Shown: in pieces, positions 45,894 through 64,000 of the stretch
How the letters are laid out: each line of letters opens with the position of its first letter
How positions within the stretch are numbered: position 1 is the first letter of the stretch
Notes under the pieces: model-generated
What the model was told of the DNA's origin: nothing
Databases searched by the model: none
The model's input: only the letters and a program-made list of their open reading frames with translations
Program-made: the position numbers and the translations under genes
From: Pirellulaceae bacterium
GTDB taxonomy: Bacteria > Planctomycetota > Planctomycetia > Pirellulales > Pirellulaceae
Assembly (NCBI GenBank): GCA_044371425.1
Contig: JBILTR010000001.1
Coordinates: 602,058-666,057 of the forward strand
Direction of reading: 5' to 3'
DNA length: 64,000 nucleotides

Positions 45894-47645
45894 TCAGGGC
45901 GCTAGCGCTTCGATCGCCTGCTTCCTTGCCGCTTCGAATTCATCCCCAGGCTTCCAAGTGGGGAGGCCGTCGGCTTCCGCGATCGCCATGGTCGCTAAGA
46001 ACAGCAGCTTTGCATCCTGCACCGCACCGCTCAAATCCCAGTCCTCACGGAATTCATCAGAGGGCTGATGGTAATGTTTCTCCACCCACTGCTCGATCTG
46101 CTGACGCCCCCAACCTTCGGGTTTCCCTTCCACCTCCTGACCCGCATGGAGATAGATCGCCGGCACCCCCAGCTTGGCTAGGCTGAATTGATCGGATCGA
46201 TAGTAGTAACCCCGATCGGGATGCAGGTCGGGTACCACGACGCGCCCCTGCCACTTGGCGATGGATTCCAGCACTTGATCCAGACTGCTTTTTCCTTGAC
46301 CAATCACATTGACATCGCGCGTCTTTCCGAGGAATCCGATCCCGTCGATATTCACCAGCCCGGCCATCCTGCCCGGCGCGATTGGCGGATTCTGAGCGAA
46401 GTACTTCGATCCTAAGAGTCCCTGTTCTTCCGCCGCCACGGAGGCAAATAGAATCGATCGCCGCGGCGCGGTGGGAAGCGCCTCCATGGCCGCCGCCAGG
46501 CACAGCATCGATGCGACGCCCGATGCATTGTCGATCGCGCCGTTGTAGATATCGTCCCCATCGGCATTGCGCGCCTCGGCCCTCCCCAGATGATCATGAT
46601 GCGCCATCACGATCACACACTGGTCGCGCAAGTTGGGGTCGCTCCCCTCCAGCCAGCCAAGCACGTTGGCGGAGTCTTGCGTGCGAGCCACGGATTCCAG
46701 ACGAAACCCACAGGTGACTCCCAGAGGCACCGGTTGGAAGTCGCTTCTCTGAGCCGCTGCAAGAAGGTCGGACCACTTCCTGCCCGCCAATCCGCTCACC
46801 TTCCCAATCGCCTCCTCGGTGATCCATCCTTTGAATCGGGTCCGCGGCGAACGATCATCCCGCAGTTCAAACTCCTCCCCCGACCAGGAATTTTGCACCA
46901 CGGAGTAGGGATAGCCGGCCGATTCGGTGGTGTGAACGATCAACGCACCGGCGGCTCCCATCTTGGCGGCCATCTCGTACTTGTAATCCCAGCGGCCATA
47001 ATAAAGCCGCTTCTTTCCTTCAAAGAGCGCCCGGTCGTCGGCTGGGTCATTGTTCAGCATGACCAGAATCTTGCCGCGAACCTCTTTTCCTTTGTAATCA
47101 TCCCACTGGTACTCGGGCGCCTGGATTCCATAGCCCACAAACACCAGTTCGGCCGGCGCCACATCGATCGCTTCTTCCGGCACTCCACACACCAGCATCA
47201 AGTCGTCGCGATGCCGCAAAGAAAGCGTCTCACTAGGAGTGCGAAAGAGCACTTCCTTCGGTGGCTTGGTGGCGATGCCTCGCAGCGGGACAGGCTGTTC
47301 CCAGCCCAGATTTCCCAGCGGTCGCATCCCATGGCTTTCCAGCTGACTGGCGATGTAACGCCGCGCCAAAAGATCTCCTTGCGAACCGGGCCCACGCCCC
47401 TCCAGAAGGTCGTCGGCAAGGAAGCGCAGATGGCCCGCCAGCCGCCCTTCATGGATCGCCTGTTCGGCAGCATCGACCTGTTGCTTGGGAGGCGCCTGGG
47501 CCGCTGCGGAACCGCAGACCATACCGCTCAGCAGCAACCCCCGCAGCCACCAGCATCGCGCTGGAAACCGAGTCGCCAGTTCCGTCCTTCGGGCACGATC
47601 ATTCCATCGCATCGCGTCACTCCTTGCTCGAAATCCTGTCGCCAT
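45894..47645 (-). CDS. M28 family metallopeptidase (aminopeptidase with PA domain).
   Basis: HHDHLG and NGAIDNASGVA zinc-ligand motifs; N-terminal signal peptide. Confidence 0.8.
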   Translation of the reverse strand: MATGFRARSDAMRWNDRARRTELATRFPARCWWLRGLLLSGMVCGSAAAQAPPKQQVDAAEQAIHEGRLAGHLRFLADDLLEGRGPGSQGDLLARRYIASQLESHGMRPLGNLGWEQPVPLRGIATKPPKEVLFRTPSETLSLRHRDDLMLVCGVPEEAIDVAPAELVFVGYGIQAPEYQWDDYKGKEVRGKILVMLNNDPADDRALFEGKKRLYYGRWDYKYEMAAKMGAAGALIVHTTESAGYPYSVVQNSWSGEEFELRDDRSPRTRFKGWITEEAIGKVSGLAGRKWSDLLAAAQRSDFQPVPLGVTCGFRLESVARTQDSANVLGWLEGSDPNLRDQCVIVMAHHDHLGRAEARNADGDDIYNGAIDNASGVASMLCLAAAMEALPTAPRRSILFASVAAEEQGLLGSKYFAQNPPIAPGRMAGLVNIDGIGFLGKTRDVNVIGQGKSSLDQVLESIAKWQGRVVVPDLHPDRGYYYRSDQFSLAKLGVPAIYLHAGQEVEGKPEGWGRQQIEQWVEKHYHQPSDEFREDWDLSGAVQDAKLLFLATMAIAEADGLPTWKPGDEFEAARKQAIEALAP

Positions 47646-47713
47646 CGGCCCGCCTTCAGTGCGGGCAAGTCTGCATCATAGCCGATCGCTGGAAATGCTG
47701 CCCGCGGATCGGT

Positions 47714-50700
47714 CTACGAAGAGAGCGATCCGAGATGCTTCAGGAAAAGCGATCGAAGGCGCTGTCGCGTGGCATGGCAACGATCGAGCAGTTGCTGGCC
47801 GGTGGGCTGGTCCAGCAGGAAGGCGAGGCGGTCTAGCTGCCGCGAGTCGCTGGGCAAATCATGCCGTGCAACGGTGTTCATCAGCCTTAGGCCGCTTTCC
47901 ACCCGTCGCAGCCAAGCATACCCTTCGGCTAGCTGTTGGCAGTCGTCGCTGGGCAACAGCCCCTCCCGCGCGATCTCACGCAGCGCAGCAAGCGTCCCGG
48001 TGGCTCGAAGCGAGGGCGCCGACTTGCCATGCTTCAGCTGCATCCACTGGACCAGGAACTCGACGTCGACAGTCCCTCCCTCTCCCCGCTTGAGATTCTC
48101 AAGGCTAGCTCCCGACTGCATCTTCTCGCGCATCGCTACCAGTTGACCTGCATCGGCGGGGTCGACCCGCGTGGAATCGAGAATGCGGCAGATCGCCTCT
48201 TCGGCTCTGCGACGCCCCGTCGGGTTGCCCCAGACGACGCGCGCCTTGCAGAGCATCAATCGTTCCCAAAGCTGTGCACTCGATTGGAAGTAGGTTTCCA
48301 GATCATGCAGGCTGAGCGCCAGGGGGCCGCTGTCGCCATGAGGCCGCAACCGCACATCCAGATCGTAGAGTTTGCCCCCCGCTGCGATTCGATTGACCCC
48401 CTGCAGAATCGACTGAGCCAGATGATGGAAGTCCGAGTGGGCTTCCGGCGTTTCCCCTGTCTCCGATAGCTGCTGGGGGTCGTAGAGGAAAAGGAGATCC
48501 AGGTCGCTATGGTAGTTCGGTTCCTGTCCCCCCAACTTGCCCAGCGCCACCAGCACCAGCGGGACTTCCTTGGCATCCTGGCCCAGCCGACTAGCACTTC
48601 CTTCCTCCAAAAATGAGTCGATCGTTCTCCCCACCACCAGTTCCAAACAGACTTCGGCGACATCGGAGAGACATCGATGAGTCGCTTCCATCGAATCCTT
48701 GCCCAGCAGATCGCGGACGCCGATCCTCAAGTGCGCCGCCCGCTTGAACCCCTGCAGGATCGGTTCGATGCGCGTGGCCCCTTGGCTTAGTTGCCTCAAT
48801 TCCTCCCGCAACGATTCGATCGACGGCAGATCGCCAAGCATCAGCGAGTCCATGAGATCGTCGATCATCCCGGGGTGGCTGGCCAGCATCTCCTCTAGGT
48901 ACTCGCTGCAGGCGCCGATGCGAATGCATAGCCGCAAGGTGGGTGGATGTTCGCTGAGCAGTTCCCAGAGGACGGCCTTGCCGCCGATGGAGTTGCTGAT
49001 GCGGACTAGGTTGACCAGCGTTCGGTCGGGGTCGGGCGTGGCGGCGATTTCGGTGAGCAATCGGTTGGCGATGGCGGAGAGAAAATGGCGACAGCGACTG
49101 GAGGAGAGGAACGGGACGGTTTCTCTGGCCAGCTCCTGCAGATGTTCAAAGGCCTGCAGCGGCTGGACCAGTCGATAAGGTGCCAGAACCGATGCGATTC
49201 GCTGTTCGGTGGGTGCTGGGTCCAGAAGAAGGTCGGTCTCCTGCGACACTTCCCCTTCTTCGCCGAAGGGTTCATGCAGCAGATGGTTCAGGATTCGGCG
49301 ATTCAGTTCCGTGCAGTCCGATAGCTGCGCTTGCAACTGCTGGGTGACCGACCGGGCGGGAAGCTGTTGGTCTCCCGGGAAGTCGCGATAGCCCAGTCGA
49401 ATCGCCAGACGTTTCATCTCCTCAGGAGATTCCGGAAGGGTATGGGTCTGCGCATCGAAGACGATCTGCAATGCATGCTCGACGCGGCGGAGGAATCGAT
49501 AATTCGTCTCCAGCAGCGATCGTTCTTGAGGAGTCAGGCAACCGGCGCGTTCCAGCTGAACAATCGCCAGCAGCGTGTTGCCTGTGGGGAGAGATTCCAA
49601 CTGGGAGGCGTGCAACAGTTGCAAGAATTGGATGACGAACTCGACATCCCGAATGCCTCCACGTCCTGTCTTGATATTGCGGCTGCCAGAGCGACCTTCG
49701 GCGTTGCTGCGTTCGATGTTTCGCTTGATCGCTCGGATGCCTGCGATATCCGCGCGGGTCAGATAGCTTCCCAAAATCCAGGGTCGGAGGCGTTCAAGGA
49801 ATTCGTCCCCAAGTTGTGTATCGCCCGCAACCGCTCGGGCCTTCAGCATCGCTTGGCGTTCCCAGGTGCGGCCCATCGTCTCGTAGTAATGCCATGCCGA
49901 TGGCAGGTCGATCACCAGTGGGCCGCTCTTCCCATAGGGTCTTAGTCGCAGATCGACGCGGTAGGCATGGTGCAACTGGTGGCTGTCTCCCAGCCATCGC
50001 GTGAAGCGTTTGGCCAGCTGATCGAAGAACAGCGTGTTCTCACAGACGCGGGGGCCTTCGGTGCAGCCCTCCAGATCTCCAAGGAACATCAGATCGATAT
50101 CGCTGGAGTAATTCAGTTCGCGGCCACCCAGTTTGCCCATCGCCAGCACGCACCAGCGAGCGGTCGATCCATCAGGACGCAGCGGCCGTCCGTATTGGGC
50201 TCGCGTTGCCTTCCACGCGGCGCGGTAGGCCGCTTCGCAGATCGCATCGGCAAGATCGGACAGTTGCTGAGCGACTAGATCGACCGGCATGCCGCCGACA
50301 AAGTCGTTGGAGGCGATCCGCACGGTCTCGCGATGCCGGTACGATCGCAGCGCCTGCAGGATCTGCGATTCGTCCTTGCACGCATCGACCTGGCAGCAGA
50401 TCTCATCGATCAGGATCTCTCGATCGACCGGTTGCAGACGGCTGCGGCGAATCGCATCGAACGCATCGGGGGATCGGATGAGCTGTTCGCTGAGATAGGG
50501 GCTGACAGAAAACATCTGCAGCAGCATCGGGAGCACATCGGGTTCGCGAGCGAAGAGGTCACCGATCGATCGCCCGGTGCGCGCCGTTCGAATGAATCGT
50601 TCTAGCGTCTCCAGCACCCCCTGCGGGTCGGTGGTGTGGGGCAGGCAGCTGCTGGCCTGATGAAGCATCTTCAGCAGCAGCGAGGGCGGGACGCCATCCT

Positions 50701-50890
50701 CTAGGAAGCGTTCCAGTACCTCGCGAGCAGCACTCGGATCCTTGAGCCCCAGTTGCTGCATCCAGTCTCTGAATCCCAGCCTAGTCGCCGAGGGCTGAAG
50801 ACCGCTATAAAAGCGATGCTGCAAGAAGGTTTCCCCCTGCTGCATCGCATCGCCCGGGCGCCCGGTGTCGCCGCTTGCTCCGTCAGGCAC
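47714..50890 (-). CDS. glnE: Bifunctional glutamine synthetase adenylyltransferase / adenylyl-removing enzyme.
   Basis: Two nucleotidyltransferase domains carrying GKLGGRELNYSSDIDL and GKLGGQEPNYHSDLDL; 1058 aa. Confidence 0.85.
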   Translation of the reverse strand: MPDGASGDTGRPGDAMQQGETFLQHRFYSGLQPSATRLGFRDWMQQLGLKDPSAAREVLERFLEDGVPPSLLLKMLHQASSCLPHTTDPQGVLETLERFIRTARTGRSIGDLFAREPDVLPMLLQMFSVSPYLSEQLIRSPDAFDAIRRSRLQPVDREILIDEICCQVDACKDESQILQALRSYRHRETVRIASNDFVGGMPVDLVAQQLSDLADAICEAAYRAAWKATRAQYGRPLRPDGSTARWCVLAMGKLGGRELNYSSDIDLMFLGDLEGCTEGPRVCENTLFFDQLAKRFTRWLGDSHQLHHAYRVDLRLRPYGKSGPLVIDLPSAWHYYETMGRTWERQAMLKARAVAGDTQLGDEFLERLRPWILGSYLTRADIAGIRAIKRNIERSNAEGRSGSRNIKTGRGGIRDVEFVIQFLQLLHASQLESLPTGNTLLAIVQLERAGCLTPQERSLLETNYRFLRRVEHALQIVFDAQTHTLPESPEEMKRLAIRLGYRDFPGDQQLPARSVTQQLQAQLSDCTELNRRILNHLLHEPFGEEGEVSQETDLLLDPAPTEQRIASVLAPYRLVQPLQAFEHLQELARETVPFLSSSRCRHFLSAIANRLLTEIAATPDPDRTLVNLVRISNSIGGKAVLWELLSEHPPTLRLCIRIGACSEYLEEMLASHPGMIDDLMDSLMLGDLPSIESLREELRQLSQGATRIEPILQGFKRAAHLRIGVRDLLGKDSMEATHRCLSDVAEVCLELVVGRTIDSFLEEGSASRLGQDAKEVPLVLVALGKLGGQEPNYHSDLDLLFLYDPQQLSETGETPEAHSDFHHLAQSILQGVNRIAAGGKLYDLDVRLRPHGDSGPLALSLHDLETYFQSSAQLWERLMLCKARVVWGNPTGRRRAEEAICRILDSTRVDPADAGQLVAMREKMQSGASLENLKRGEGGTVDVEFLVQWMQLKHGKSAPSLRATGTLAALREIAREGLLPSDDCQQLAEGYAWLRRVESGLRLMNTVARHDLPSDSRQLDRLAFLLDQPTGQQLLDRCHATRQRLRSLFLKHLGSLSS

Positions 50891-50908
50891 CCGTCACCCT
50901 CCGTCGGT

Positions 50909-51706
50909 TCAGGGCTGCTTGGGCACCACAGGTGGCAGAGGCTTGCCATCGGGAACGAATCGCACCGAAATCGAATTGACGCAGTGCCGGGTGTTCTTCA
51001 GGGTAAAACCTTCTCCTTCGAACACATGTCCCAGGTGGCCATCGCAATTGGCGCAGAGAATCTCGGTGCGATACCCGTCGGCATCGACTTCGCGTCGCAC
51101 CGAATCGGGGATCTCATCATCAAAGCTAGGCCATCCGCAATGGCTATCGAATTTGTCGCTGGACCGATACAACGGCGCGTTGCAGCGACGGCAGAGGTAG
51201 GTGCCTTTTTCTTTGTGGTTCCAATACTCTCCCGTAAACGCTCGCTCGGTCCCCTTGTGCAGGATGACATATTGCTCATCGCGACTGAGCGTGTTGTACT
51301 GGCCGGGGGCGGGAGTCTTTTCGGAGGATGCCACTTCGGCTAGCGCGCTTTGCGGATCGTCCTGCGAAGCAATCTTCTTGGGATCAGCGATCATGGCGGA
51401 TTCCTTGGTATCAGCGGCGAGGGGGGCAGAAGAGGTAGAGGAATCGACCGAAGTTTCTCGCGCCGAAGCCTGGTTGGCAACCGGGGGAGGAGGGGTCTGT
51501 TGGGAGACCACTTCGGAGTTGGGGGTCGCGGGAGGGGGGAGACGCTTGCCGGCGATGAAAAGGGCGGCAAGTGCCACGCCCACGATGGCGAAAGCAAGGA
51601 GTCGGGTTGGAAGCGGCATGGTGTCGTTCCTCCGGGGTGAACTGGCGAGAGGCGTGCAGGTCAGCGAGGACCAAGGCCGCGGTGGGATTTTCAAAAAAGG
51701 ATCCAC
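50909..51706 (-). CDS. msrB: Peptide-methionine (R)-S-oxide reductase MsrB with an N-terminal membrane anchor and low-complexity linker.
   Basis: Two CxxC pairs (CRRCNAPLY..., [12 protein letters not shown]) and the catalytic RHCVNS motif. Confidence 0.8.
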
Positions 51707-51812
51707 CGGCCTGTTGGTAGCTTAGAGGATCGCAAACCCCAAGTCGACCCGAAAGGGGAGTCCCCCGCCGATCCGCAGGGGTGCCGAGGGCCAAAAAAAC
51801 TTGCAGGAACAG

Positions 51813-51939
51813 ACCCAAGGTGTGCAATAGGACAGCCCCGGGCAATGCCTTGGGATTGGTTTCATCTTTCATGCACAGCGCCCCGCACGTCGGCATGTGC
51901 ACACCCAAGGTGTGCTATGTGAAAGCCCGGGGCAACGCC
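51813..51939. repeat. Pair of ~37-bp direct repeats (acccaaggtgtgc.a.{13}agccc.gggcaa.gcc) 90 bp apart in the hsdM upstream region.
   Basis: R1 is 51813-51849 and R2 is 51903-51939. Each ends in a short palindrome. Confidence 0.6.
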
Positions 51940-52151
51940 CCGGGGAACGGCGACAGCCACCCCACCCCATCCTCACCATCCGCCCCGACGGGGCGAGACG
52001 ATACAATAACCAATGACGCAAAAAAAGCGTCGATTTCGGAGGCGTGAGGAGGGACGGTTGGCGAGCACAACCGCTTGGGAAGGTTCTGACGTATCTCGAT
52101 CCTATCGTCCTCTGAATCCCTAGGCTGCCAGAATACCGAGGAGACCATTCG

Positions 52152-53771
52152 TTGCACTGGATTGCACCCACCGAAAAAGATACGGCGGCCGCGTCGCTGG
52201 AAAAGCGACTTTGGGACGCGGCCGATCAGTTCCGCGCCAACTCGGGGCTCAAGGCCCAGGAATACTCTGGCCCTATTCTTGGACTGATTTTTCTCCGATT
52301 CGCCGAAGTGCGTTTTGCCGCCCAGCGCGCCAAACTGGAAAAAGCCGGAACTTCGTCCCGTCGAGGTAGCCGGGTGGATGAACCCGCTGCCTACCATGCC
52401 GATAACGTGCTGTATCTGGCTGCCGAGGCGCGCTTCGATCACCTGCTGACCTTGCCCGAGGCGGTCGACATCGGCGCCAAGGTCAACGCCGCGATGCGCG
52501 AGGTGGAAAAACACAATCCGCAACTGGCCGGCGTGCTACCCAAGACCTTCAATCTCTTCACCAGCACCCTGCTCAAGGAGCTGCTGAAAAAAATCTCCGA
52601 GATCCCGGCCACACTCGACTTCGATGCCTTCGGCAGGATCTACGAATATTTTCTGGGCGAGTTCGCGATGAGCGAGGGCCAGGGCGGTGGCGAGTTCTAT
52701 ACGCCCGCCAGCATCGTGCAGTTGCTGGCGCAGGTGATCGAGCCCTTCCATGGGCGCATTCTCGACCCCGCCTGTGGATCGGGGGGTATGTTCGTGCAAT
52801 CGGCGCGGTTCGTGGCCGAGCATCATAAGAACCCGGCTGCCGAACTCTCCATCTGTGGCGTCGAGAAGACCGACGAGACCGGCCGACTGGCGCGCCTGAA
52901 CCTCGCCGTGCACGGGCTGGAGGGGGACATCCGCCACGGTGGTAACGTGAACAGCTACTACGACGACCCGCACAATGCCACCGGCCAGTTCGATTTCGTG
53001 CTGGCCAATCCACCCTTCAATGTGAACGCGGTGGACAAGGAGCGGATCAAGGACATGGTCGGCACCGGTCGGCGTTTCCCCTTCGGACTGCCGCGCACCG
53101 ACAACGCCAACTACCTCTGGATCCAGCTCTTCTGCTCGGCGCTGAATGCCAAAGGCCGCGCTGGTTTCGTTATGGCCAACTCGGCCTCCGATGCGCGCAG
53201 CAGCGAGCAAGAGCTACGGCAGAAGCTGATCGAGGCGCAGGCGGTGGATGTCATGGTGGCCGTCGGTCCCAACATGTTCTACACCGTGACGCTCCCCTGC
53301 ACGCTGTGGTTCCTCGACCGGGGCAAGGCTAAGACGAACCGCGCCGAGACCGTGCTCTTTATCGATGCGCGTCATATCTACCGCCAAGTCGATCGCGCCC
53401 ACCGCGATTGGACACCGGCGCAGATCGGATTCATCGCCAACCTCGTGCGACTCTATCGCGGCGAAGCGCCTGACTTGACCGTGGGGGGCCAGGAGACCGA
53501 AGCCAAGCTGAAAGAAGTCTTTGGTAAGAAGCCGAAATATGCCGACATCCCGGGCCTCTGCAAGGCAGCGACGATCGAGCAGATCGAGTCGCAGGGTTGG
53601 TCGCTGAACCCCGGCCGCTATGTCGGCGTGGCTCCGGGCGAAGAGGTGAGCGACGAGGATTTTAAATCGCAGCTTCAATCGCTGAACGAGGAATTGGAAA
53701 CCCTCAACGCCCAAGCGCGGGAATTGGAAGCGACCATTGCCAAAAACGTAGCAGGGATTTTGGAGATATGA
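52152..53771 (+). CDS. hsdM: Type I restriction-modification system DNA methyltransferase subunit M.
   Basis: N6-adenine MTase motifs DPACGSGGM and LANPPFN; HsdM N-terminal domain LWDAADQFR. Confidence 0.9.
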
Positions 53772-54622
53772 AAACAGAATTGGTTCAGGCGTTAAACACC
53801 ACATTCGAAGGGCATGCTCAGCAAACAGAAAGCGGCGTTGAGTTCTGGCTCGCGCGGGATCTTCAGCACTTACTGGGCTATTCAAAATGGGACAATTTTC
53901 TGGGCGTGGTTGTAAAGGCAAAAACCGCCTGTGATGTCTCTGGGCACCCGGTGGGCGACCATTTTGCCGACGTCGGGAAAATGGTCGATCTGGGCTCGGG
54001 TAGCCAGCGGGAAATTGACGACATCATGTTGACTCGCTATGCCTGCTATCTGATTGCTCAGAACGGCGACCCGAGGAAACTGGAAATCGCCTTTGCGCAG
54101 ACCTACTTCGCCGTCCAGACTCGTCGAGCTGAACTGATTGAACAACGTTTGCTTGAGGCCGAGCGAGTTTCGGCTCGCAAAAAGCTCAGCGTTACTGAAA
54201 AGGAACTGTCGGATGTCATCTTCGAGCAAACCGGTGGCAATAATGACTTCGCGTTGATTCGCAGCAAAGGGGACCAGGCTCTCTTTGGAAAATCGACCCA
54301 GGCGATGAAAGCTCAATGGAAAGTCCCGGACAGTCGCCCTCTAGCCGACTTCGCCCCGACGATCATTTTGAAAGCCAAGGACTTTGCCACAGAGATTACG
54401 ATCTTCAATGCGCGCCAGCATGGAATGAGCAGCGAGTCGGCGATTTCTCGCGAGCATGTGACGAACAACCAGGCGGTCCGCAACACGCTGCTGGAACGTG
54501 GCATTCGGCCCGAGGCTCTGCCGGCAGCCGAGGATGTGAAGAAAGTCGAGCGACGTTTGGCCTCTGAGGAGAAAAAATCGCTGCAGAATCCTGAAGGCCT
54601 CACCGCGGAGGAACAGCAATGA
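53768..54622 (+). CDS. dinD: DinD-like (DNA-damage-inducible protein D, Bro-N domain) protein embedded in the type I R-M operon.
   Basis: [32 protein letters not shown] and [12 protein letters not shown] are DinD-like. The ATGA start overlaps the hsdM stop. Confidence 0.65.
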
Positions 54623-54639
54623 GCGAACTTATAAGATTT

Positions 54640-54697
54640 GCCCAAACGCGGGAATTGGAACAAACCATCGCCGCCAATGTGGCGGGGATTTCGGAGG
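54640..54697 (+). pseudogene. Relic duplicate of the 3' end of hsdM between dinD and hsdS.
   Basis: About 80% nt identity over 57 bp to 53709-53765. It would encode AQTRELEQTIAANVAGISEG, compared with the HsdM C-terminus [20 protein letters not shown]. Confidence 0.7.
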
Positions 54698-54698
54698 G

Positions 54699-55923
<1,225 letters not shown>

Positions 55924-55931
<8 letters not shown>

Positions 55932-57015
55932 AATCACCCCGCTGCCCGCCGACTACGCCCCGCTGCTGGCGGAGATCAAGGCCCGCGTGCGGCATGCGCA
56001 GACCCGCGCCGTGATGGCGGTCAATGCGGAGCTGATCCGCCTGTATGGGGAGATCGGTGCGCTGATCGACCAGCGCCAGCAACAGGAAGGCTGGGGAGCC
56101 AAGGTGATCGAGCGTCTGGCCCGCGACCTGCACAACGAGCTGCCCGAAGAAAAGGGCTTTTCCGAGCGCAACATCAAGCGGATGCTGGCCTTTTATCGGG
56201 CCTACCCGCACTTTGTGCCACAGGCTGTGGCACAAATGGGGGGCAAACCAGAAGTGCCGGAGGCCGTGGCACTTTTTCCGACCGATCTCTTGCTGGCGCT
56301 GCCCTGGGGGCATCACAGCGAGCTGCTCGCCAAGGTCAAGGATGCAGCCACCCGACAATGGTACATGCAGGCAGCGGTTCGGTTCGGGTGGAGCCGCAAC
56401 ATTCTGCTGATGCAGATCGAGACCTCGGCGCACCTGCGCCAGGGAAAGGCGACCACGAATTTTTCCGAACGCCTGCCGCCACCGGCATCGGACATGGCGC
56501 AGCAGTCGCTGAAAGACCCCTACATCTTCGACTTTCTTACCCTCGCCAACGGGTTTCATGAGCGGGAGCTGGAAACCGGGCTGGTGGCCCATCTGGAGAA
56601 GTTTCTGCTGGAGTTGGGCCAGGGCTTCGCCTTCGTGGGAAGACAGTATCACCTAGATCTCGGCGGGGATGACTTCTACATCGATCTGCTGTTCTATCAC
56701 CTGAAGCTGCGCTGCTTCGTGGTGATCGACCTCAAACGCGGGGACTTCAAACCCGAATACGCCGGCAAGATGAACTTCTACTGCAATGTGGTGGACGACC
56801 GACTGCGCCATGCGAGCGATGCGCAAACCATCGGACTGATTTTGTGTCAGCAACCCAATAGGGTTCTCGCCGAGTACGCGCTGCGCGGCATCGACAAACC
56901 CATCGGTGTGTCGACCTATGAACTGACTCGGGCACTGCCTACGGAACTGCAAACCAGCCTGCCCAGCATCGAGGAGCTCGAGCGGGCGCTGGCCGACCAT
57001 TCAGGAGACGAATAG
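55924..57015 (+). CDS. DUF1016 / YhcG-family PD-(D/E)xK nuclease-like protein, copy 1.
   Basis: The N-terminal NAELIRLYGEIGALI...GWGAKVIERLARDL is YhcG-like. C-terminal PD-(D/E)xK motif YIDLLFYHLKLRCFVVIDLKRGDFKPEYAGKMNFY. The start overlaps the hsdS stop by 8 bp. Confidence 0.8.
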
Positions 57016-57017
57016 CC

Positions 57018-57064
57018 ATGAGCCCGCACGCCTACACCGAAGACCAACTCGTTGAACAGCCCGC
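57018..57064 (+). pseudogene. Relic duplicate of the 5' end of hsdR.
   Basis: A 47/47-nt identical match to the hsdR start at 58212-58258 (atgagcccgcacgcctacaccgaagaccaactcgttgaacagcccgc). Confidence 0.8.
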
Positions 57065-57186
57065 CATCGGGTTGTGCTCCCACCGGGTGCCTTTGGGCAA
57101 GGGGCGCTTGCATCATTCGCGGCTTTCTCCAACCGACGGTTGGACTTGCCGGGCATTGGCCACTAGCAAGGCCAGGGAGGAACGCT

Positions 57187-58215
57187 ATGACTGATTATCT
57201 ACCTTTGCCTTCCGACTACAACCAGCTCCTTGCCGAGGTGAAAGATCGCATCCGTTCGGCCCAGTATGCTGCACTCAAAGCAGTCAATACCGAGCTTGTC
57301 GGACTGTATTGGGATCTAGGCCGCTTGATTGTGGAGAAACAGGAGCAATCGGGGTGGGGTAAATCCGTGGTTGAACGACTCTCTCAAGACTTGCGGAAGG
57401 AATTCCCCGGCGTGGCCGGTTTCTCGGTCCAGAATCTCTGGTATATGCGCCAATTCCATCTGGAATATCGGGAACATGAAAAACTCCAACCACTGGTTGG
57501 AGAAATCGCCTGGGCACACAACTTGGTCATCATGAGCAAGTGCAAAGACCCTCTCGAGCGGGAATTCTACCTGCGAATGACTCGCAAGTTCGGCTGGTCA
57601 AAAAACGTACTGATCCACCAAATCGCGAACCAGAGCTACGAGAAGTCCTTGCTGGGGCAGACCAATTTCGACCAGACCCTGACGCCCGCGCTCCGGTCAC
57701 AGGCCAAGCTGGCCGTGAAGGATGAATACACCTTCGATTTCCTGGAACTGGCCGAAGAACACAGTGAACGAGAGCTTGAGCGGGCTCTCATCGCCCGCGT
57801 TGAAGACTTCCTTCGGGCCATGGGTGGCTTGTTTGCCTTCATGGGAAGCCAGTATCGGCTTGAGGTCGACGGCCGGGAGTATTTCTTGGACCTACTCCTG
57901 TTCCATCGGCGATTGCGATCTCTGGTGGCCATCGAACTAAAGATTGGCGATTTTCAACCCGAGTTCGTTGGCAAGATGCAGTTCTATTTGACGGCGCTGG
58001 ATCGACAGGTACGGCAGGACGATGAGAACCCGTCCATTGGTATCATCCTATGCAAGGAGAAGAACCGCACCATCGTCGAGTATGCACTGCATGATGCCAA
58101 CAAGCCCATCGGCGTGGCGACTTACGAGATCACTCGGACGCTACCCAAGGAACTGAAGGAGCAATTGCCTCGGCCCGAGGAGATCGCGGCATTGCTCGAG
58201 GGGTTCGATCCATGA
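57187..58215 (+). CDS. DUF1016 / YhcG-family PD-(D/E)xK nuclease-like protein, copy 2. It is diverged from copy 1 and has visibly lower GC.
   Basis: NTELVGLYWDLGRLI...GWGKSVVERLSQDL and YFLDLLLFHRRLRSLVAIELKIGDFQPEFVGKMQFY. The TGA stop overlaps the hsdR ATG. Confidence 0.8.
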   Translation: MTDYLPLPSDYNQLLAEVKDRIRSAQYAALKAVNTELVGLYWDLGRLIVEKQEQSGWGKSVVERLSQDLRKEFPGVAGFSVQNLWYMRQFHLEYREHEKLQPLVGEIAWAHNLVIMSKCKDPLEREFYLRMTRKFGWSKNVLIHQIANQSYEKSLLGQTNFDQTLTPALRSQAKLAVKDEYTFDFLELAEEHSERELERALIARVEDFLRAMGGLFAFMGSQYRLEVDGREYFLDLLLFHRRLRSLVAIELKIGDFQPEFVGKMQFYLTALDRQVRQDDENPSIGIILCKEKNRTIVEYALHDANKPIGVATYEITRTLPKELKEQLPRPEEIAALLEGFDP

Positions 58216-61200
58216 GCCCGCACGCCTACACCGAAGACCAACTCGTTGAACAGCCCGCGATCGGACTCTTTGCTGCATTGGGCTGGCAAACGATTTCGGC
58301 TATGGAAGAAACCTTCGGCCCCGACGGTACGTTTGGCCGCGAGACCAAAGGGGAGGTGGTGCTGACCGATCGACTGCGGGCGGCACTCACCAAGCTCAAC
58401 CCTGGCCTGCCCGCCGAGGCGATCCAGACCGCTATCGACGAACTGGCCCGTGACCGCTCGGCCATGAGCCTGGAGGCCGCCAACCGCGAGGTGTACCGAC
58501 TACTCAAGGAGGGTATTCCGGTTTCCATCCCCGACCGCGAGCACGGCGGGCAGAAGACCGAGCGGCTGCGCGTGGTCGATTGGGAACACCCAGAACAGAA
58601 CGATTTTCTACTAGTCAGTCAGCTTAGCGTGGTCGGCAGCCTCTACACCTGCCGGCCTGATCTGGTCGGTTTTGTGAATGGCTTGCCTTGGGTGGTGATC
58701 GAACTGAAGAAGCCCGTCGTGCCGGCGCGCGCAGCGTTCGATGAGAACCTGACGCACTACAAGAAAGAGATCCCGCAGCTCTTCTGGTTCAACGCCCTGC
58801 TGATCGCCAGCAACGGCACCGACAGCCGCGTCGGGTCGCTGACTGCCGACTGGGAACGGTTCTTCGAGTGGAAGCGGATCGAGCGTGAGGACGAGCCGCG
58901 CCGCGTGTCGATGGAGGTGATGCTGCGCGGCACCTGCGACCCCAATCGGCTGCTCGACTTGGTAGAGAATTTTACGCTCTTCTCCGAGCACAAAGCGGGC
59001 CTGGTGAAGGTGCTGGGCCAGAACCACCAGTTCCTCGGCGTCAACAACGCGATCCGCTCCATGCTGGAAGCCCGCAAGCTGGGCCACGGGCGCGGCGGTG
59101 TGTTCTGGCAGACGCAGGGAAGCGGCAAGAGTTTTTCGATGGTGTTCTTCGCGCAGAAGGTGCTGCGCAAACTGACCGGCAACTGGACCTTCGTGGTGGT
59201 GACCGACCGGGTGGAACTGGATGAGCAGATCGCCAAGACCTTCAAGACCGTAGGTGCGGTGAGCGAAGCAGAGGGGGACCAGTGCCATGCCGCTAGCGGG
59301 GCGCACCTGCGCGAGTTGTTGCGAGGCAACCATCGCTACGTGTTCACGCTGGTGCACAAGTTCCAGACGCCGGAGATGCTCACCGATCGTTCGGATGTGA
59401 TCGTGCTGACCGACGAAGCGCATCGCAGCCAGTACGATACCCTGGCGCTGAACATGCGGGCGGCGCTGCCCAAGGCCCTATTCTTGGCCTTCACCGGTAC
59501 TCCACTGATCGCGGGCGAAGAGCGTACCAAGGAGGTTTTTGGCGACTATGTGTCGATCTATGACTTCCAGCAATCTGTTGAGGACGGCGCGACGGTGCCG
59601 CTGTTCTATGAGAACCGCACCCCCGAGTTGCAACTGGTCAACCCTGATCTCAATGACGACATTTATGACCTGATTGAGAACGCCAGTCTTGACGAACAGC
59701 AGGAGGCGAAGCTGGAGCAAGCACTGGGACGGCAATACCACCTGATTACGCGCGACGACCGGCTGGAGACGGTGGCTGCAGATATCGTCACGCATTTTCT
59801 AGGCCGGGGCTTCCTCGGCAAGGCGATGGTTGTTTCCATCGACAAGGCCACGGCGCTGCGGATGCACGACAAGGTGAAGAAACACTGGGCCGCCGAGACG
59901 GCGCGTGTGCAGAAGGAACTGAACCGCTACGACCTGCCAGATTTAGAAAAGGCAGCGCTGCGGCACCGACTGGAGGTGCTGACTACCACCGACATGGCGG
60001 TCATCGTCTCGCCGGGGCAGAACGAAATCGAGCAGATGAGGAAGCTAGGGATCGACATCGAGCCGCACCGTAGACGCATGAACGATTCTCAGCCCGGACT
60101 GGACGAGAAGTTCAAGGACACGAACGATCCACTGCGTCTGGTGTTCGTCTGTGCCATGTGGCTGACCGGTTTTGACGCCCCGAGCTGTTCGACGGTTTAC
60201 CTCGACAAGCCGATGCGCAATCACACGCTGATGCAGACGATCGCCCGCGCGAACCGCGTCTTCCCAGGCAAGCACAGTGGCGTGATTGTGGACTACGCCA
60301 ATGTGTTCGCCTCGTTGGAGAAAGCGCTGGCCATCTACGGCGCGGGCAAGGGTGGCACGAACCCGGTCAAGGACAAGGCCGAGTTGGTCGCAGCCCTGCG
60401 GGAGGCGATCGCTGAGGTTACCTCGTTCTGTGCCGGCCATGGCGTCGACCTTGCCGCGATGGAAACCCTTCCCGTGGCTGGGATGGAGCGACTGGCTGCG
60501 ATTGAGGACGCGATCGATTCGCTGATTGGTCCTGATGCGGTGCGACGGGAGTTTCTCGGTCACGAAAAATTCGTGAGCACGCTGTATCGCGCCGTCAAAC
60601 CCGATCCAGCAGCAGTTGAATTTTCGATGAGAGTGGCGGGGATTGTGACACTTGCTGGAGCGATCCGAGAAAGACTGAACCCCAACTCGCCCGATATCTC
60701 CACCATTTTGCAGCAGATTGGCGGTCTGCTGGACGATTCGATCACCGGCTTGACGATTCGTGAAGAGGGGCCACCCGCCATCGACCTTTCGAAAATCAAC
60801 TTCGAGGCGCTGGCCAATCGGTTCAAGGAATCGAAACACAAGAATACCGACCTTGAGGCATTGAAGACGGCCATCGCGGCAAGGCTGGAGAAGCTGGTTC
60901 GATTGAACCGAACCCGAGCCGACTTCGCCGAACGATTCGAATCGCTGATCGAGAGTTACAACAATGGCAGCCGCAACATCGAACAGCTCTTTGAGGAACT
61001 GCTCAAGCTGTCGAATAGCCTGGACAGCGAGCAGGAGCGTCACGTGCGCGAGAATCTCAGCGAAGAAGAGCTGGTGATCTTCGACATTCTGACGCGTCCC
61101 GCGCCGGAGTTGACGACCGCCGAACGCGACGAAGTAAAAAAGGTTGCCAGAGATCTACTCTCGCGTCTGAAGAGCTTGCTGGTGCTCAACTGGCGGCAGA

Positions 61201-61367
61201 AATCTGCCGCGCGATCGACTTTGAAATTGGCGATCGAAGACACGCTGGATACATTACCGGCTGCCTACGACCGGCCGTTGTTCGCGCAGAAATGTTCGGC
61301 GCTTTTCGAGCATGTTTATGAGAGCTACCCGGAACTGAATTCGGGAGTCTATGCTGGGCTGACCTGA
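58212..61367 (+). CDS. hsdR: Type I restriction enzyme endonuclease/helicase subunit R.
   Basis: Helicase motifs GSGKS and DEAH; FTGTP; 1051 aa; typical HsdR N-terminal start MSPHAYTEDQL. Confidence 0.9.
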   Translation: MSPHAYTEDQLVEQPAIGLFAALGWQTISAMEETFGPDGTFGRETKGEVVLTDRLRAALTKLNPGLPAEAIQTAIDELARDRSAMSLEAANREVYRLLKEGIPVSIPDREHGGQKTERLRVVDWEHPEQNDFLLVSQLSVVGSLYTCRPDLVGFVNGLPWVVIELKKPVVPARAAFDENLTHYKKEIPQLFWFNALLIASNGTDSRVGSLTADWERFFEWKRIEREDEPRRVSMEVMLRGTCDPNRLLDLVENFTLFSEHKAGLVKVLGQNHQFLGVNNAIRSMLEARKLGHGRGGVFWQTQGSGKSFSMVFFAQKVLRKLTGNWTFVVVTDRVELDEQIAKTFKTVGAVSEAEGDQCHAASGAHLRELLRGNHRYVFTLVHKFQTPEMLTDRSDVIVLTDEAHRSQYDTLALNMRAALPKALFLAFTGTPLIAGEERTKEVFGDYVSIYDFQQSVEDGATVPLFYENRTPELQLVNPDLNDDIYDLIENASLDEQQEAKLEQALGRQYHLITRDDRLETVAADIVTHFLGRGFLGKAMVVSIDKATALRMHDKVKKHWAAETARVQKELNRYDLPDLEKAALRHRLEVLTTTDMAVIVSPGQNEIEQMRKLGIDIEPHRRRMNDSQPGLDEKFKDTNDPLRLVFVCAMWLTGFDAPSCSTVYLDKPMRNHTLMQTIARANRVFPGKHSGVIVDYANVFASLEKALAIYGAGKGGTNPVKDKAELVAALREAIAEVTSFCAGHGVDLAAMETLPVAGMERLAAIEDAIDSLIGPDAVRREFLGHEKFVSTLYRAVKPDPAAVEFSMRVAGIVTLAGAIRERLNPNSPDISTILQQIGGLLDDSITGLTIREEGPPAIDLSKINFEALANRFKESKHKNTDLEALKTAIAARLEKLVRLNRTRADFAERFESLIESYNNGSRNIEQLFEELLKLSNSLDSEQERHVRENLSEEELVIFDILTRPAPELTTAERDEVKKVARDLLSRLKSLLVLNWRQKSAARSTLKLAIEDTLDTLPAAYDRPLFAQKCSALFEHVYESYPELNSGVYAGLT

Positions 61368-61430
61368 GCATGTTTTCTCAGGGCAACGCCCTGGGGTCGC
61401 TAGAGCTTTATAGGACAGTGAACGCCCGGT

Positions 61431-63002
61431 TCAGCAATCGGCTCGGAATGCCAGCAGCGTGCGATCCTGGTGGTTGGTTTCCTGAGGGTCTGACGGGCTG
61501 GGCAGATGCCTGGCGATCGCTAGGCAGAACTCGGAGATCGGTAGATCGCTATGCGATTCCACTAGCTGCACCAGTTGGCTCCAAGGGAGCACATCGGATG
61601 TCGCAGTGGCCTCCGGGCCAAGGTCGGCCACCGCTGCGTTCCACAGCAGCAGTCCCGTCCCAGGCTGCCATGGGATGGTGGTGATGGCGGGGGTGATGCC
61701 GGTGGATGACTGGCCTAGCGTGGAATCCCCCAGCGGTCTTTGTCCCCTGCCGAGGAATCGGCAGCCATCGGGACCCCAGCAGAGAGCCCCGACGTGCCCG
61801 TGAAGAGCCAGTTTGACGCTGCGCTGGTTGGCGTCGAAGTCGGCCCAAGCTAGGCCGCTGTGACTCCAGTCGCTCTGGTGACCGTTTGGGATCCAGCGAG
61901 GGAGCTGGCCAAGGCGTTGGTCGATCATCGGCAGGGCCTGTTCGATCGACTGGTTTTCCAGCCAGGAGTGCTGCAAGAGTGTTTGCAGCGTGGTGGCCAC
62001 CATCGCTCCGAGAACCGATTGCTGCTGGCTAGCTCCAATGGCACAGCGCAGTCGATGGGATTCGGGTTGGTACCAATCATGAAATGCGCCGCCGACTGGG
62101 CCCGCCTGAGAGGTCCAGCCATCCCATTGGATGGGCGAGGCGGAGGCGGTGCGCGTGGGAAGCATGGCGGCCTGAGCCCAGCCGGCATCTTCCATCGTCG
62201 ATTGAATGGAGTAGCTTCGTTCCAGCTGGCGGACCATCTGGAACTGCTGAAGGGCACCGACCATCTGGTCGGCGGCCATGGTGGCGATGGCGATATCGCG
62301 GCGATCGAAATCTCGCGGCCGATCGCTCCAGAACCACAGCGTTCCCAGCGGCGTCGATTCCGTGCCTACCGGGACGCAGATCGCTGCGGGAAACGGTTCG
62401 GGCCTAGCCCATGCGATCTGAGTATCTTCGGCTCGCAGCAGAACGGCTTTGCCGAGCAATGCTTCGAGGTCGGCGCGAGCGCCTCGCAGCGGCCGTGGGG
62501 CCTGGATGAGAACTCCTTCCAGCGAACCCCAGGCAGCGCGGGGCTGCAGCGATCGATGGTCTTCGGTTAGCAGGTACATCGAAGCGGCTTGCATGCCCAT
62601 CGCCAGCGATGCATCGCCAAGCGTCCGCTGCCAGCGATCGGCTAGTTGCGATTGCTCTTTGGCGTCCAACGTGAAATGGATTCCAGTCGCCAGTTCCGCA
62701 TGCTGCCGTCTAACCACCTGCTCGGTGCGATGGAGACGTCGGGCGAGCGACTGGATGGGATCGAGCAGATGTCGGACTTGTTCGAGCGACAGGGAGGCGT
62801 GTTGGTCGGGATCTAGTTCCTTGGCCAGCACCCAGCGTCCCTCCGCGACACTCCATCCGCGTCGTTCGACGCGCCAGCCCGACAGATCCTCCAGGGCGTC
62901 GAGGATCTGTTCCCATTCGGATTCCAAAGGGAGATCCCGTTGAGGTGGCGAGAAGGCTTCGCCCTCGTGGAGTCGCAGATGGGGAGAACGATCCAGTGGC
63001 AC
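61431..63002 (-). CDS. GAF-domain protein with a C-terminal, apparently degenerate PP2C/SpoIIE-like phosphatase domain.
   Basis: Central GAF-like region; LPTRT...VGGAFHDWY...AIGASQQQSV resembles RsbU/SpoIIE motifs but lacks the DxSGxG metal-binding aspartates; C-terminal LLAFRADC. Confidence 0.45.
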   Translation of the reverse strand: MPLDRSPHLRLHEGEAFSPPQRDLPLESEWEQILDALEDLSGWRVERRGWSVAEGRWVLAKELDPDQHASLSLEQVRHLLDPIQSLARRLHRTEQVVRRQHAELATGIHFTLDAKEQSQLADRWQRTLGDASLAMGMQAASMYLLTEDHRSLQPRAAWGSLEGVLIQAPRPLRGARADLEALLGKAVLLRAEDTQIAWARPEPFPAAICVPVGTESTPLGTLWFWSDRPRDFDRRDIAIATMAADQMVGALQQFQMVRQLERSYSIQSTMEDAGWAQAAMLPTRTASASPIQWDGWTSQAGPVGGAFHDWYQPESHRLRCAIGASQQQSVLGAMVATTLQTLLQHSWLENQSIEQALPMIDQRLGQLPRWIPNGHQSDWSHSGLAWADFDANQRSVKLALHGHVGALCWGPDGCRFLGRGQRPLGDSTLGQSSTGITPAITTIPWQPGTGLLLWNAAVADLGPEATATSDVLPWSQLVQLVESHSDLPISEFCLAIARHLPSPSDPQETNHQDRTLLAFRADC

Positions 63003-63412
63003 GTCCGAGCTTTCTAAGAAGGCGAAGCGATCGACGAGTCTTTGGGGCGAGGTGTCGGAGCACCTGGTCGCCCGAGGTGAGTGACGGGAGAGACCATCGG
63101 CCTGGGTCGCTCTTTCGGTCGAGGAAAACAGGGTGGAGTGCGTGGTGCGGTCCCCCTCCCTGACTTGCTGATCGACACAACCGGACTAACCGAAATTCCC
63201 AACACGACGGCTCAAGCCGGGTGGGAAACAGCTAATGGAATAAAAAGTCGTTCGTGCCCGGCCCAAGTTGGCAGGGGTATCGATGTCCGATCCCCACTCA
63301 CGGATTCTCTTGATGATGGCGGAACCCTGGTGAGTCCCCTGGGAGATCGCATCGGGTTTTCTACTGACGGAGTCCGATGGCAGGGAGGCACGGTCGTGGG
63401 CAAAAGGAAAGA

Positions 63413-63997
63413 TTAGGAAGAAGGACTGCTGTCCGCCTCTTCGCTTCCCGTATCGTCGCTGGGGATTTCGAAGGAGCTGGTGGTTTTGACGATGGCGAGG
63501 TCGTCGGGGAAGGTGTGCAGTCCATAAACCACCGCGCGACGACTGCGAAGATCGACATGCAACAGACTGGCCGCTCCGATCGAGACCCGGCCACTCGATT
63601 CAAACAAATGCAGCAAATCCGACTCTTGCCGCTTCTGCCGAAACTCCTTGTGGATCATCGCAAACAGCTCGGCCGGAAGCACCTCCCGCTGGTAGGTCGT
63701 CTGGTAGATGACCCCACGCGGTGCATCGGTACGGAAGCTATAGGGATCCCCGATGAGCCCCCGATGCATCAGGCGTCGTGTGGGTAGGGGCTGGTGTGCC
63801 GAACTGGCGACTTCGCAAAGCGTCAGCGTCTTGTAATAGAACTGAATGCGATGCCCTTCGTGGGTGATGTCGACCTCGACCCGATAGTCGTTGCGATCGA
63901 ACACTCCGGTCTGAACCACCTGGAACAGCTCCGGATGCAGGGCACGCGAAAAGCAGTGGAGTGCGATCGCCATCGCTCGCGGTCGAATCGTCAGCAC
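63413..63997 (-). CDS. Hypothetical protein. The N-terminus may lie at or beyond the window edge.
   Basis: ORF only. The coding strand was chosen by composition. Confidence 0.3.
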   Translation of the reverse strand: MLTIRPRAMAIALHCFSRALHPELFQVVQTGVFDRNDYRVEVDITHEGHRIQFYYKTLTLCEVASSAHQPLPTRRLMHRGLIGDPYSFRTDAPRGVIYQTTYQREVLPAELFAMIHKEFRQKRQESDLLHLFESSGRVSIGAASLLHVDLRSRRAVVYGLHTFPDDLAIVKTTSSFEIPSDDTGSEEADSSPSS

Positions 63998-64000
63998 AAC

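Follow-up and report, generated by a model that had tools for sequence, protein, structure and literature searches.

A probable recombination scar in a Type I restriction-modification operon of a Pirellulaceae bacterium: a relic of the hsdR 5' end between two DUF1016 genes

We have examined a Type I restriction-modification (R-M) operon of a Pirellulaceae bacterium and find that it carries, between two genes of the DUF1016 family, a relic of the beginning of its own restriction gene, hsdR. The operon lies in a 64,000-nucleotide (nt) stretch of contig JBILTR010000001.1 (assembly GCA_044371425.1, positions 602,058 to 666,057), hereafter called the window, and all positions are those of the window unless another locus is named. 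It is a single, tightly packed operon on the + strand (52152-61367) with the order hsdM, Bro-N, hsdS, DUF1016-1, DUF1016-2, hsdR. The relic, hereafter the stub, directly follows DUF1016-1 and is separated from DUF1016-2 by a short spacer (Table 1). This arrangement is probably a recombination scar, formed by an illegitimate joint together with homologous exchange between operon variants, in which the stub would have been kept as a translational-coupling leader. None of the genes is unusual, each belonging to a known family; the scar and the recurrent relay through stub open reading frames (ORFs) are a new variant on illegitimate recombination, gene embedding and translational coupling.

The stub and the start of hsdR form a long direct repeat. 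Positions 57016-57064 and 58210-58258 are identical (49/49), which confirms and lengthens by two bases a 47/47 match that the original prediction, made from the sequence alone, had reported at the hsdR start. Extension to 57070 and 58264 gives 54/55 identical positions. The window contains exactly two copies of the 49-mer, and 0/100 shuffles gave a match with up to three mismatches allowed. Homology between stub and hsdR reaches codon 19 (57076), with four differences, all of them within the last 10 positions; the stub has the family consensus codons GCC ATC GGG TTG for hsdR residues 16-19, and the working hsdR has GCG ATC GGA CTC. Since the homology continues through codon 19, the relic (57018-57076, about 58 nt) is a genuine hsdR 5' end. 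The frame that it opens has 58 codons, as originally described, and its TGA overlaps the ATG of DUF1016-2 at 57187 (ATGACTGA, 57187-57194). Between the direct repeats lie only the spacer and DUF1016-2.

Such a close match is unusual for this gene. Only 0.3% of pairs within the hsdR family agree over the first 53 nt as well as the stub and the working hsdR do (52/53). We considered, and rejected, the possibility that nucleotide-level selection acts on the 5' end of hsdR because it serves as a recombination site or an RNA element: a codon-wise test of 79 family members revealed no special synonymous conservation there (synonymous identity 0.66 for codons 1-10 and 0.55 for codons 11-20, versus 0.53 gene-wide).

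The single-copy state expected before the event, with the equivalent of the relic inside an intact gene, was found in four metagenome contigs, L100-L103 (related loci and contigs are cited by L numbers). Their order is hsdS-DUF1016-hsdR, with DUF1016 directly abutting a full hsdR (1052 aa), and they encode the nearest homolog of DUF1016-1 (P0001; 93% aa and 91% nt identity). Window positions 55842-57075 align with L100 positions 1287-2520 at 90.8% identity, without a break, over the hsdS 3' end, DUF1016-1 and the stub, and past the stub equivalent the L100 sequence continues as full hsdR. Because this alignment runs unbroken into hsdR, the stub is the start of an hsdR gene that formerly stood behind DUF1016-1. 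The original prediction had pointed to copy number in relatives as informative and had taken the repeat for a target duplication. The copy number bears the first point out, L100-L103 having one DUF1016 gene and the repeat equivalent at the start of their full hsdR. A target duplication in the transposition sense must be abandoned: the repeat, which adjoins DUF1016-1 just as its equivalent does in L100, is what remains of the beginning of the earlier hsdR, and other stubs, described below, differ in length (19-145 codons) and have hsdS 3' ends joined to them at microhomologies.

DUF1016-2 has its relatives elsewhere. Its nucleotide identity is 93.7% to L028 and 91-95% to L024, both from Pirellula metagenome-assembled genomes (MAGs). 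The similarity to L028 begins only at about position 38 of the DUF1016-2 gene; upstream of the DUF1016-2 homolog, L028 and L024, together with L109 and L111, share another, non-coding sequence. The window hsdR is 71-87% identical to that of L028, segment by segment, and DUF1016-2 and hsdR aligned jointly give ~81%. The two DUF1016 proteins are 42% identical to each other, lower than the ~50% first estimated. Each copy has a far closer relative elsewhere than in the other, which upholds the earlier view of a cassette event at the hsdR 5' end rather than an old in situ tandem duplication. Both copies have the catalytic D...(D/E)LK residues (IDLL...IDLK in copy 1, LDLL...IELK in copy 2), and the two nuclease genes are probably redundant; a literature search found no paper with a tested function for YhcG.

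Among the relatives of DUF1016-2, L109 (1898-2194) and L111 (5026-5403) have genes of 88% and 81% identity, respectively, each with a 62-codon hsdR stub behind it and no long ORF beyond; they may be decayed operons. In L024 (4684-4795 and 5545-5967), from a different Pirellula MAG, small remnants of a DUF1016-1-like gene are followed, as in the window, by a DUF1016-2-like gene with an internal deletion, and ~750 nt of non-coding sequence, common with L028, separate the two.

Base composition also separates the two copies. GC content is 0.609 in DUF1016-1 and 0.541 in DUF1016-2, and GC content at third codon positions (GC3) is 0.769 versus 0.668 (Fisher p=0.003). A host baseline was taken from 34 long ORFs of the window (GC3 0.678 +/- 0.042). 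Against this, DUF1016-2 is typical, as are Bro-N and hsdS, and the outliers are hsdM (0.765), DUF1016-1 and hsdR (0.758), with hsdM and DUF1016-1 about 2 standard deviations (sd) above the mean. The earlier observation that DUF1016-2 is the more AT-rich gene therefore stands relative to DUF1016-1 and fails relative to the host, and the recent acquisition read from it falls away, as the GC3 of DUF1016-2 is the host's own. To call the gene foreign because it is AT-richer is the wrong way round, and the two DUF1016 genes are clearly of different histories. In L028 the DUF1016-2 relative has a GC3 of 0.649 and the adjoining hsdR 0.650; DUF1016-1 relatives have a GC3 of 0.77, with adjoining hsdR genes at 0.84-0.90. 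The operon backbone (hsdM, DUF1016-1, hsdR) looks imported from a GC-richer lineage, and the GC3 that these three genes have in common favors DUF1016-2 as the interposed piece.

Scars of this kind recur across phyla. The hsdR family concerned (74-90% aa identity) is found in Planctomycetota, Proteobacteria, Verrucomicrobiota, Acidobacteriota, Chlorobi, Spirochaetes and others, and recurrence was counted in a set of 80 related Type I loci from many phyla that share it; hsdM aa identity across the 80 loci is 74-98%. Stubs of the hsdR 5' end are present in 16/80 loci, one to three in each, with lengths of 19-145 codons. All of them lie on the same strand as the full hsdR and upstream of it, none being found downstream or on the opposite strand in the 80 loci. 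The genes behind the stubs are of kinds typically found embedded in R-M operons and include Fic/DOC, DUF6088 with AbiEii, Schlafen AlbA_2/HATPase_c_4, Nmad3, DUF488 and DUF1016.

Many stubs are joined to the last ~20 codons of hsdS (RDLLLPRLLSGQIDVEALDHA, up to the stop), as in L044, where the fusion reads MSPHAYTEDQLVEQPAIGLFS followed by RDLLLPRLLSGQLDVESLDHA and the stop. The Accumulibacter loci L105-L108 have GmrSD, then hsdR codons 1-42 fused to the last 20 codons of hsdS, then a DUF1016 gene (82% identity to DUF1016-1) and hsdR; L104 has a DUF1016-1 homolog (90%), a degenerate stub fused to an hsdS 3' end, and an AlbA_2 gene. Where both parents of a joint are recognizable, the joint shows microhomology of 3-11 nt (~8 nt in L105, 3-11 nt in L091 and L089), and the L044 joint is clean, with at most 3 nt. 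The variable stub length, the hsdS 3' partner and the microhomology are together consistent with illegitimate joining of operon variants and argue against site-specific insertion. Behind the stubs, the hsdS motifs are in the frame of the stub before any stop in 8/8 cases and never in the other two frames, which has a chance probability of about 1.5e-4 if the eight are independent. Stubs also decay by internal deletion, as in L037, where hsdR 1-40 is joined to about 210-240, and L029 has a duplicated hsdR 5' part (a 128-codon ORF) with no cassette between the copies. Taken together, the scars show whole junction segments moving between operon variants of distant phyla. Other Type I families, too, have divergent DUF1016 genes in tandem (L122, 671-2888; L148, 4-1496; L140, 106-1484).

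The relics sit in an operon whose junctions are all overlaps or near-abutments: ATGA at hsdM/Bro-N, ATGCCTGA at hsdS/DUF1016-1, TAGCCATG at DUF1016-1/stub, ATGACTGA at stub ORF/DUF1016-2 and ATGA at DUF1016-2/hsdR. A second relic, of the hsdM 3' end, lies in the mini-ORF between Bro-N and hsdS (54640-54703, a 77% repeat copy of 53709-53772), and the same relic stands behind Bro-N in six other loci (L014, L023, L030, L041, L046 and L096). In L122, which belongs to a different Type I family, a 37-codon hsdM-relic ORF links the tandem DUF1016 genes with ATGA at both ends. Among the stub ORFs, 17/25 end between -8 and +9 nt from an ATG at the head of an ORF of 200 aa or more. We infer that the scars may have stayed in frame because translational coupling is relayed through them, first to the added gene and then to hsdR. 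In the window, ribosomes would be handed from DUF1016-1 to the stub ORF, on to DUF1016-2 and then to hsdR, and the mini-ORF at 54619-54702 would do the same between Bro-N and hsdS.

It is possible, and we propose it only tentatively, that this operon family as a whole grows by a recombinase-free stacking of cassettes, in which hsdR 5', hsdS 3' and hsdM 3' ends travel as homology arms and survive as in-frame coupling mini-ORFs; the repeat in the window would then be one instance. If true, this cassette-stacking "grammar" would be general and previously undescribed, and would explain defense genes embedded in other defense systems. The window alone is of modest interest, with a scar and two probably redundant nuclease genes, one of them being lost in the population; the general pattern is of higher interest. 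The scars suggest that expression of the stack depends on the wreckage staying in frame, and they are a reason for annotation pipelines to retain, at loci of this kind, both small ORFs and fragments called "partial hsdR".

Table 1. Features of the R-M operon and its scars (window positions; domain calls with Pfam, defense-family calls with PADLOC)
Feature	Position	Strand	Evidence and remarks
hsdM, Type I methyltransferase	52152-53771	+	HsdM_N PF12161 7e-20, N6_Mtase PF02384 1e-74; GC3 0.765
Bro-N gene, between hsdM and hsdS	53768-54622	+	Bro-N 2e-09; PADLOC candidate PDC-S13 3e-116
27-codon mini-ORF, hsdM 3'-end relic	54619-54702	+	ATG on Bro-N stop (ATGA), TGA on hsdS GTG (GTGA)
hsdS specificity subunit	54699-55931	+	Methylase_S PF01420 9e-19
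DUF1016-1, YhcG-type PD-(D/E)XK nuclease, 363 aa	55924-57015	+	DUF1016_N 4e-37, YhcG_C 4e-65; PDC-S02 1e-145 to 8e-145
Segment deleted in many conspecific strains, 378 bp	56584-56961	+	between imperfect 19-nt repeats 56565-56583 and 56943-56961
hsdR 5'-end stub, codons 1-19 and 2 upstream bases	57016-57076	+	repeat with hsdR start; L100 alignment
Stub ORF, 58 codons, MSPHAYTEDQLVEQPAIGLCSH...	57018-57194	+	starts at old hsdR ATG; no Pfam match
Spacer between stub and DUF1016-2, 110 nt	57077-57186	+	outside-species match not found
DUF1016-2, YhcG-type nuclease, 342 aa	57187-58215	+	DUF1016_N 2e-48, YhcG_C 3e-63; PDC-S02 1e-154 to 8e-154
hsdR, restriction subunit	58212-61367	+	HSDR_N 1e-44, SWI2_SNF2 8e-69, T1R_D3-like, T1RH-like_C 1e-36; second repeat copy at 58210-58264

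The arrangement probably formed as follows. The starting operon would have been hsdM-hsdS-DUF1016-1-hsdR, and the partner DNA would have come from another variant with a different DUF1016 gene (X2) ahead of its hsdR, in the order upstream junction, X2, hsdR 5' end and onward. The incoming fragment would have paired with the resident hsdR by homology, and its other end would have been sealed by a non-homologous joint within the first ~58 bases of the resident hsdR, at 57076/57077. The first hsdR codons of the resident would then remain as the stub, and the homology-resolved end, in or near the hsdR 5' end, would rebuild an intact hsdR from the incoming copy, giving the order DUF1016-1, hsdR stub, 110-nt spacer, DUF1016-2, hsdR. 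The 49-nt perfect block followed by four mismatches in 10 nt may mark a crossover point, a repair mosaic or a gene-conversion boundary between hsdR alleles.

Such a process would be akin to homology-facilitated illegitimate recombination (HFIR), in which a homologous anchor is combined with a microhomology joint, as described from experiments in Acinetobacter, Streptococcus pneumoniae and Pseudomonas stutzeri; an unequal crossover of two operon variants would be equivalent, and neither a transposase nor an integrase would take part. The likeness to HFIR is that one side lies in conserved hsdR and the other is a non-homologous joint near the anchor, with 3-11 nt of microhomology where both parents are recognizable. 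The difference is that the pathway here is deduced from natural sequence, that no right-hand parent was found for the window joint, and that an unequal crossover would leave the same scar.

Several observations weigh against this account. A blastn search of 160 related loci turned up no source for the spacer or for the opening ~37 nt of DUF1016-2, so that the 57076/57077 joint has no recognized right-hand parent with which microhomology could be scored. Structure alone does not decide which block was resident, and the body of the window hsdR is a mosaic that is not clearly nearest to the hsdR of L100 or of L028; hsdR-body similarity was tried as a guide to the resident block and failed for this reason. 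If DUF1016-2 had arrived with its own hsdR 5' end, differences between stub and hsdR would be predicted in the first 49 nt. None is found except in strain L020, so an extra step is needed, either gene conversion or mosaic repair of a heteroduplex. Finally, translation of the stub ORF is deduced from geometry only.

The spacer itself offered few clues. Three-frame translation and a motif search, carried out alongside blastn, found no hsdS motif in it in any frame. Stub and spacer together match no Rfam family and have no significant fold (z -0.64), and scans of their + strand, which cover planctomycete expression signals poorly, found no promoter- or terminator-like site. Two similar palindromes, TCCAACC(N3-4)GGTTGGA, are present, one in the spacer (57129-57145) and one inside DUF1016-2 (57485-57502); the latter is followed on the minus strand by a T-run and registers as a terminator-like hit.

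The same mechanism could have acted with the opposite polarity, which we consider unlikely. In that case a Planctomycete-type block (spacer-DUF1016-2-hsdR) would have been resident, and a GC-richer hsdM...hsdS-DUF1016-1-hsdR(1-58) would have come in, with a homologous anchor on its left in hsdM/hsdS and an illegitimate joint 110 nt upstream of DUF1016-2. The final structure would be identical. The host-typical GC3 of DUF1016-2 (0.668), the +2 sd position of hsdM and DUF1016-1, and the Pirellula MAGs as the home of the nearest DUF1016-2 relatives all agree with it. The GC3 of hsdR (0.758) does not, since it resembles that of hsdM and DUF1016-1 and not that of DUF1016-2, and with the L028 hsdR at 0.650 a further replacement of hsdR would be required. 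The 49-nt identity of stub and hsdR would also have to be a coincidence or the result of conversion, given that so few family pairs reach 52/53.

An in situ tandem duplication of DUF1016 with the hsdR 5' end, followed by long divergence of the copies or by homologous recombination in the flanks that replaced one copy with a foreign allele, is less probable still. With an illegitimate joint of hsdR to the upstream sequence it would produce the same topology, L029 shows that an hsdR 5' part can be duplicated without a cassette, and the L028 similarity that starts at about nt 38 of DUF1016-2 makes allelic replacement inside the cassette evident. Plain divergence is excluded by the 42% protein identity set against a flanking repeat of 54/55 and by the 93-95% relatives that each copy has elsewhere. 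The variant with replacement takes two events where one suffices, and stubs fused to hsdS 3' ends ahead of unrelated genes (GmrSD/DUF1016, DUF1016/AlbA_2) fit a one-step fusion of different operons no less simply.

That a mobile element or a site-specific recombinase inserted at the hsdR start, taking it for an attachment site and duplicating it, is very improbable, even though a direct repeat does bracket a single gene of different composition. Pfam and repeat scans detected no transposase, integrase or inverted repeats in the operon or between the repeats, and no recombinase gene is present among the ORFs of 50000-64000. Target duplications made by transposition are far shorter than the 49-58 bp repeat, and the variable stubs (19-145 codons), often with an hsdS 3' end as right-hand partner, do not suit a fixed site. 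The lack at the hsdR 5' end of the special synonymous conservation that a recombinase site would impose, and the absence of significant structure in the spacer, likewise speak against it. An assembly artefact, in which strain variants with DUF1016-1 and DUF1016-2 were chained via the shared hsdR start, can practically be set aside: the window is metagenomic and three short Logan contigs do end ~30 nt past DUF1016-1, inside the repeat, but about 20 contigs show the same order and spacer; these derive from independent samples and assemblers, some of them being k141 assemblies (k-mer longer than the repeat), and the arrangement is also present in strains with a different DUF1016-1 state.

Those strains allow the later history of the scar to be followed. 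A JGI contig matches the window exactly over part of its length, and a Planctomycetaceae MAG has an hsdR with 99% identity to the window gene; the same gene is also seen in Logan contigs. Stub, spacer, DUF1016-2 and hsdR occur at the same chromosomal site in about 20 conspecific contigs from JGI, ENA and NCBI, that is, in all that are long enough to show it. L002, L004-L010 and L020 are missing 378 bp of DUF1016-1 and with it the nuclease core (Table 1), and in L002 (9115-10008) a further 1-nt insertion joins the DUF1016-1 remnant in frame to the stub ORF (297 aa). Bro-N is missing in L002, L006-L008 and L020, among the contigs that reach that far, and the deletion-bearing strains have other hsdS recognition domains. 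The two-copy arrangement is thus now decaying in the population and is not an event of the sampled strain.

Between strains the R-M locus is 98-99% identical, versus 92-95% for the flanking genes (window 47200-64000 compared with L002 and L020), from which it follows that the two-copy arrangement spread within the species after it formed. This suggests that the spread of the locus within the species was recent and occurred by recombination. The word "recent" in the original prediction is true only relatively: all of the ~20 conspecific contigs carry both copies and the relic, and many strains have since acquired the 378-bp deletion.

The DUF1016-2/hsdR junction has also been altered in one strain. 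L020 (~9145-9245) has a patch of ~100 nt, made up of the final ~50 nt of DUF1016-2 and the initial 47 nt of hsdR, that is nearly identical to L028; it has 14 differences per 100 nt to the window and stops on the right exactly where the 49-nt perfect repeat ends. One possible cause of the difference between the window and L020, gene conversion of the DUF1016-2 3' end by that of DUF1016-1, was rejected because the variant positions do not match DUF1016-1; the more economical reading is that the patch was imported as one ~100-nt piece. Together with the 49-nt block and its clustered mismatches, the patch indicates that this junction keeps recombining. In L004, hsdR is 93-100% identical (mostly 97-100%) over the first 2 kb and 70-80% over the C-terminal third (from about nt 2000), which points to a domain-level swap inside hsdR.

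The embedding of defense genes in Type I R-M operons is established, and its significance and origin remain open, only a "genomic sink" idea being mentioned in discussion (Payne et al. 2024, 10.1101/2024.01.29.577857). DUF1016 genes adjoining Type I systems have been noted before (PMC9881135), and embedded GmrSD-like genes are known from TgvAB of Vibrio cholerae VPI-2 (PMC11411939). Our loci resemble these in gene content and co-orientation, with two PDC-S02 genes and one PDC-S13 gene in the window and GmrSD in L105. PrrC in EcoprrI is another embedded gene of a Type I R-M system. The PDC families of PADLOC are untested candidates (10.1101/2024.01.29.577857). Earlier papers list the embedded genes, whereas here the joints are visible, with relics of core-gene ends bracketing the embedded genes. 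Embedding in Type I R-M, BREX and similar operons is used for system discovery, and the scars are a direct record of the joining events. The literature that was searched holds no description of relics of hsdR or hsdM ends, of their frame bias or of HFIR in defense loci, which is not proof of absence.

Three other systems invite comparison. Integron cassette arrays likewise consist of ordered, co-oriented, promoterless single genes with a repeated element between them and expression from upstream; here there is no integrase, and the repeat is a core-gene coding fragment of variable length and not a folded attC. Translational coupling through overlaps of the ATGA or ATGnnTGA type is found at every operon junction of the window, including both ends of the two relic ORFs; the difference is that coupling would here be relayed via ORFs that are gene wreckage. 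In hsdS domain shuffling, the conserved central and C-terminal segments serve as break points, and this same operon swaps hsdS domains between strains; that is homologous exchange that alters specificity within one gene, whereas the scar joins non-homologous gene ends and adds a gene.

The remaining features of the operon are those of a Type I system: HsdM_N and N6 methyltransferase domains, hsdS, and an hsdR with an N-terminal nuclease domain and an SF2 motor, for which PADLOC gives a REase_I match (6e-175). The target-recognition parts of hsdS vary between strains, and the gene can be aligned to other strains only at 55084-55300 and from 55842 onward; its conserved center and C-terminus align to relatives. 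Upstream of hsdM are two 52-nt direct repeats (51803-51854 and 51893-51944), 77% identical and 90 nt apart, each of which ends in a GC-rich hairpin.

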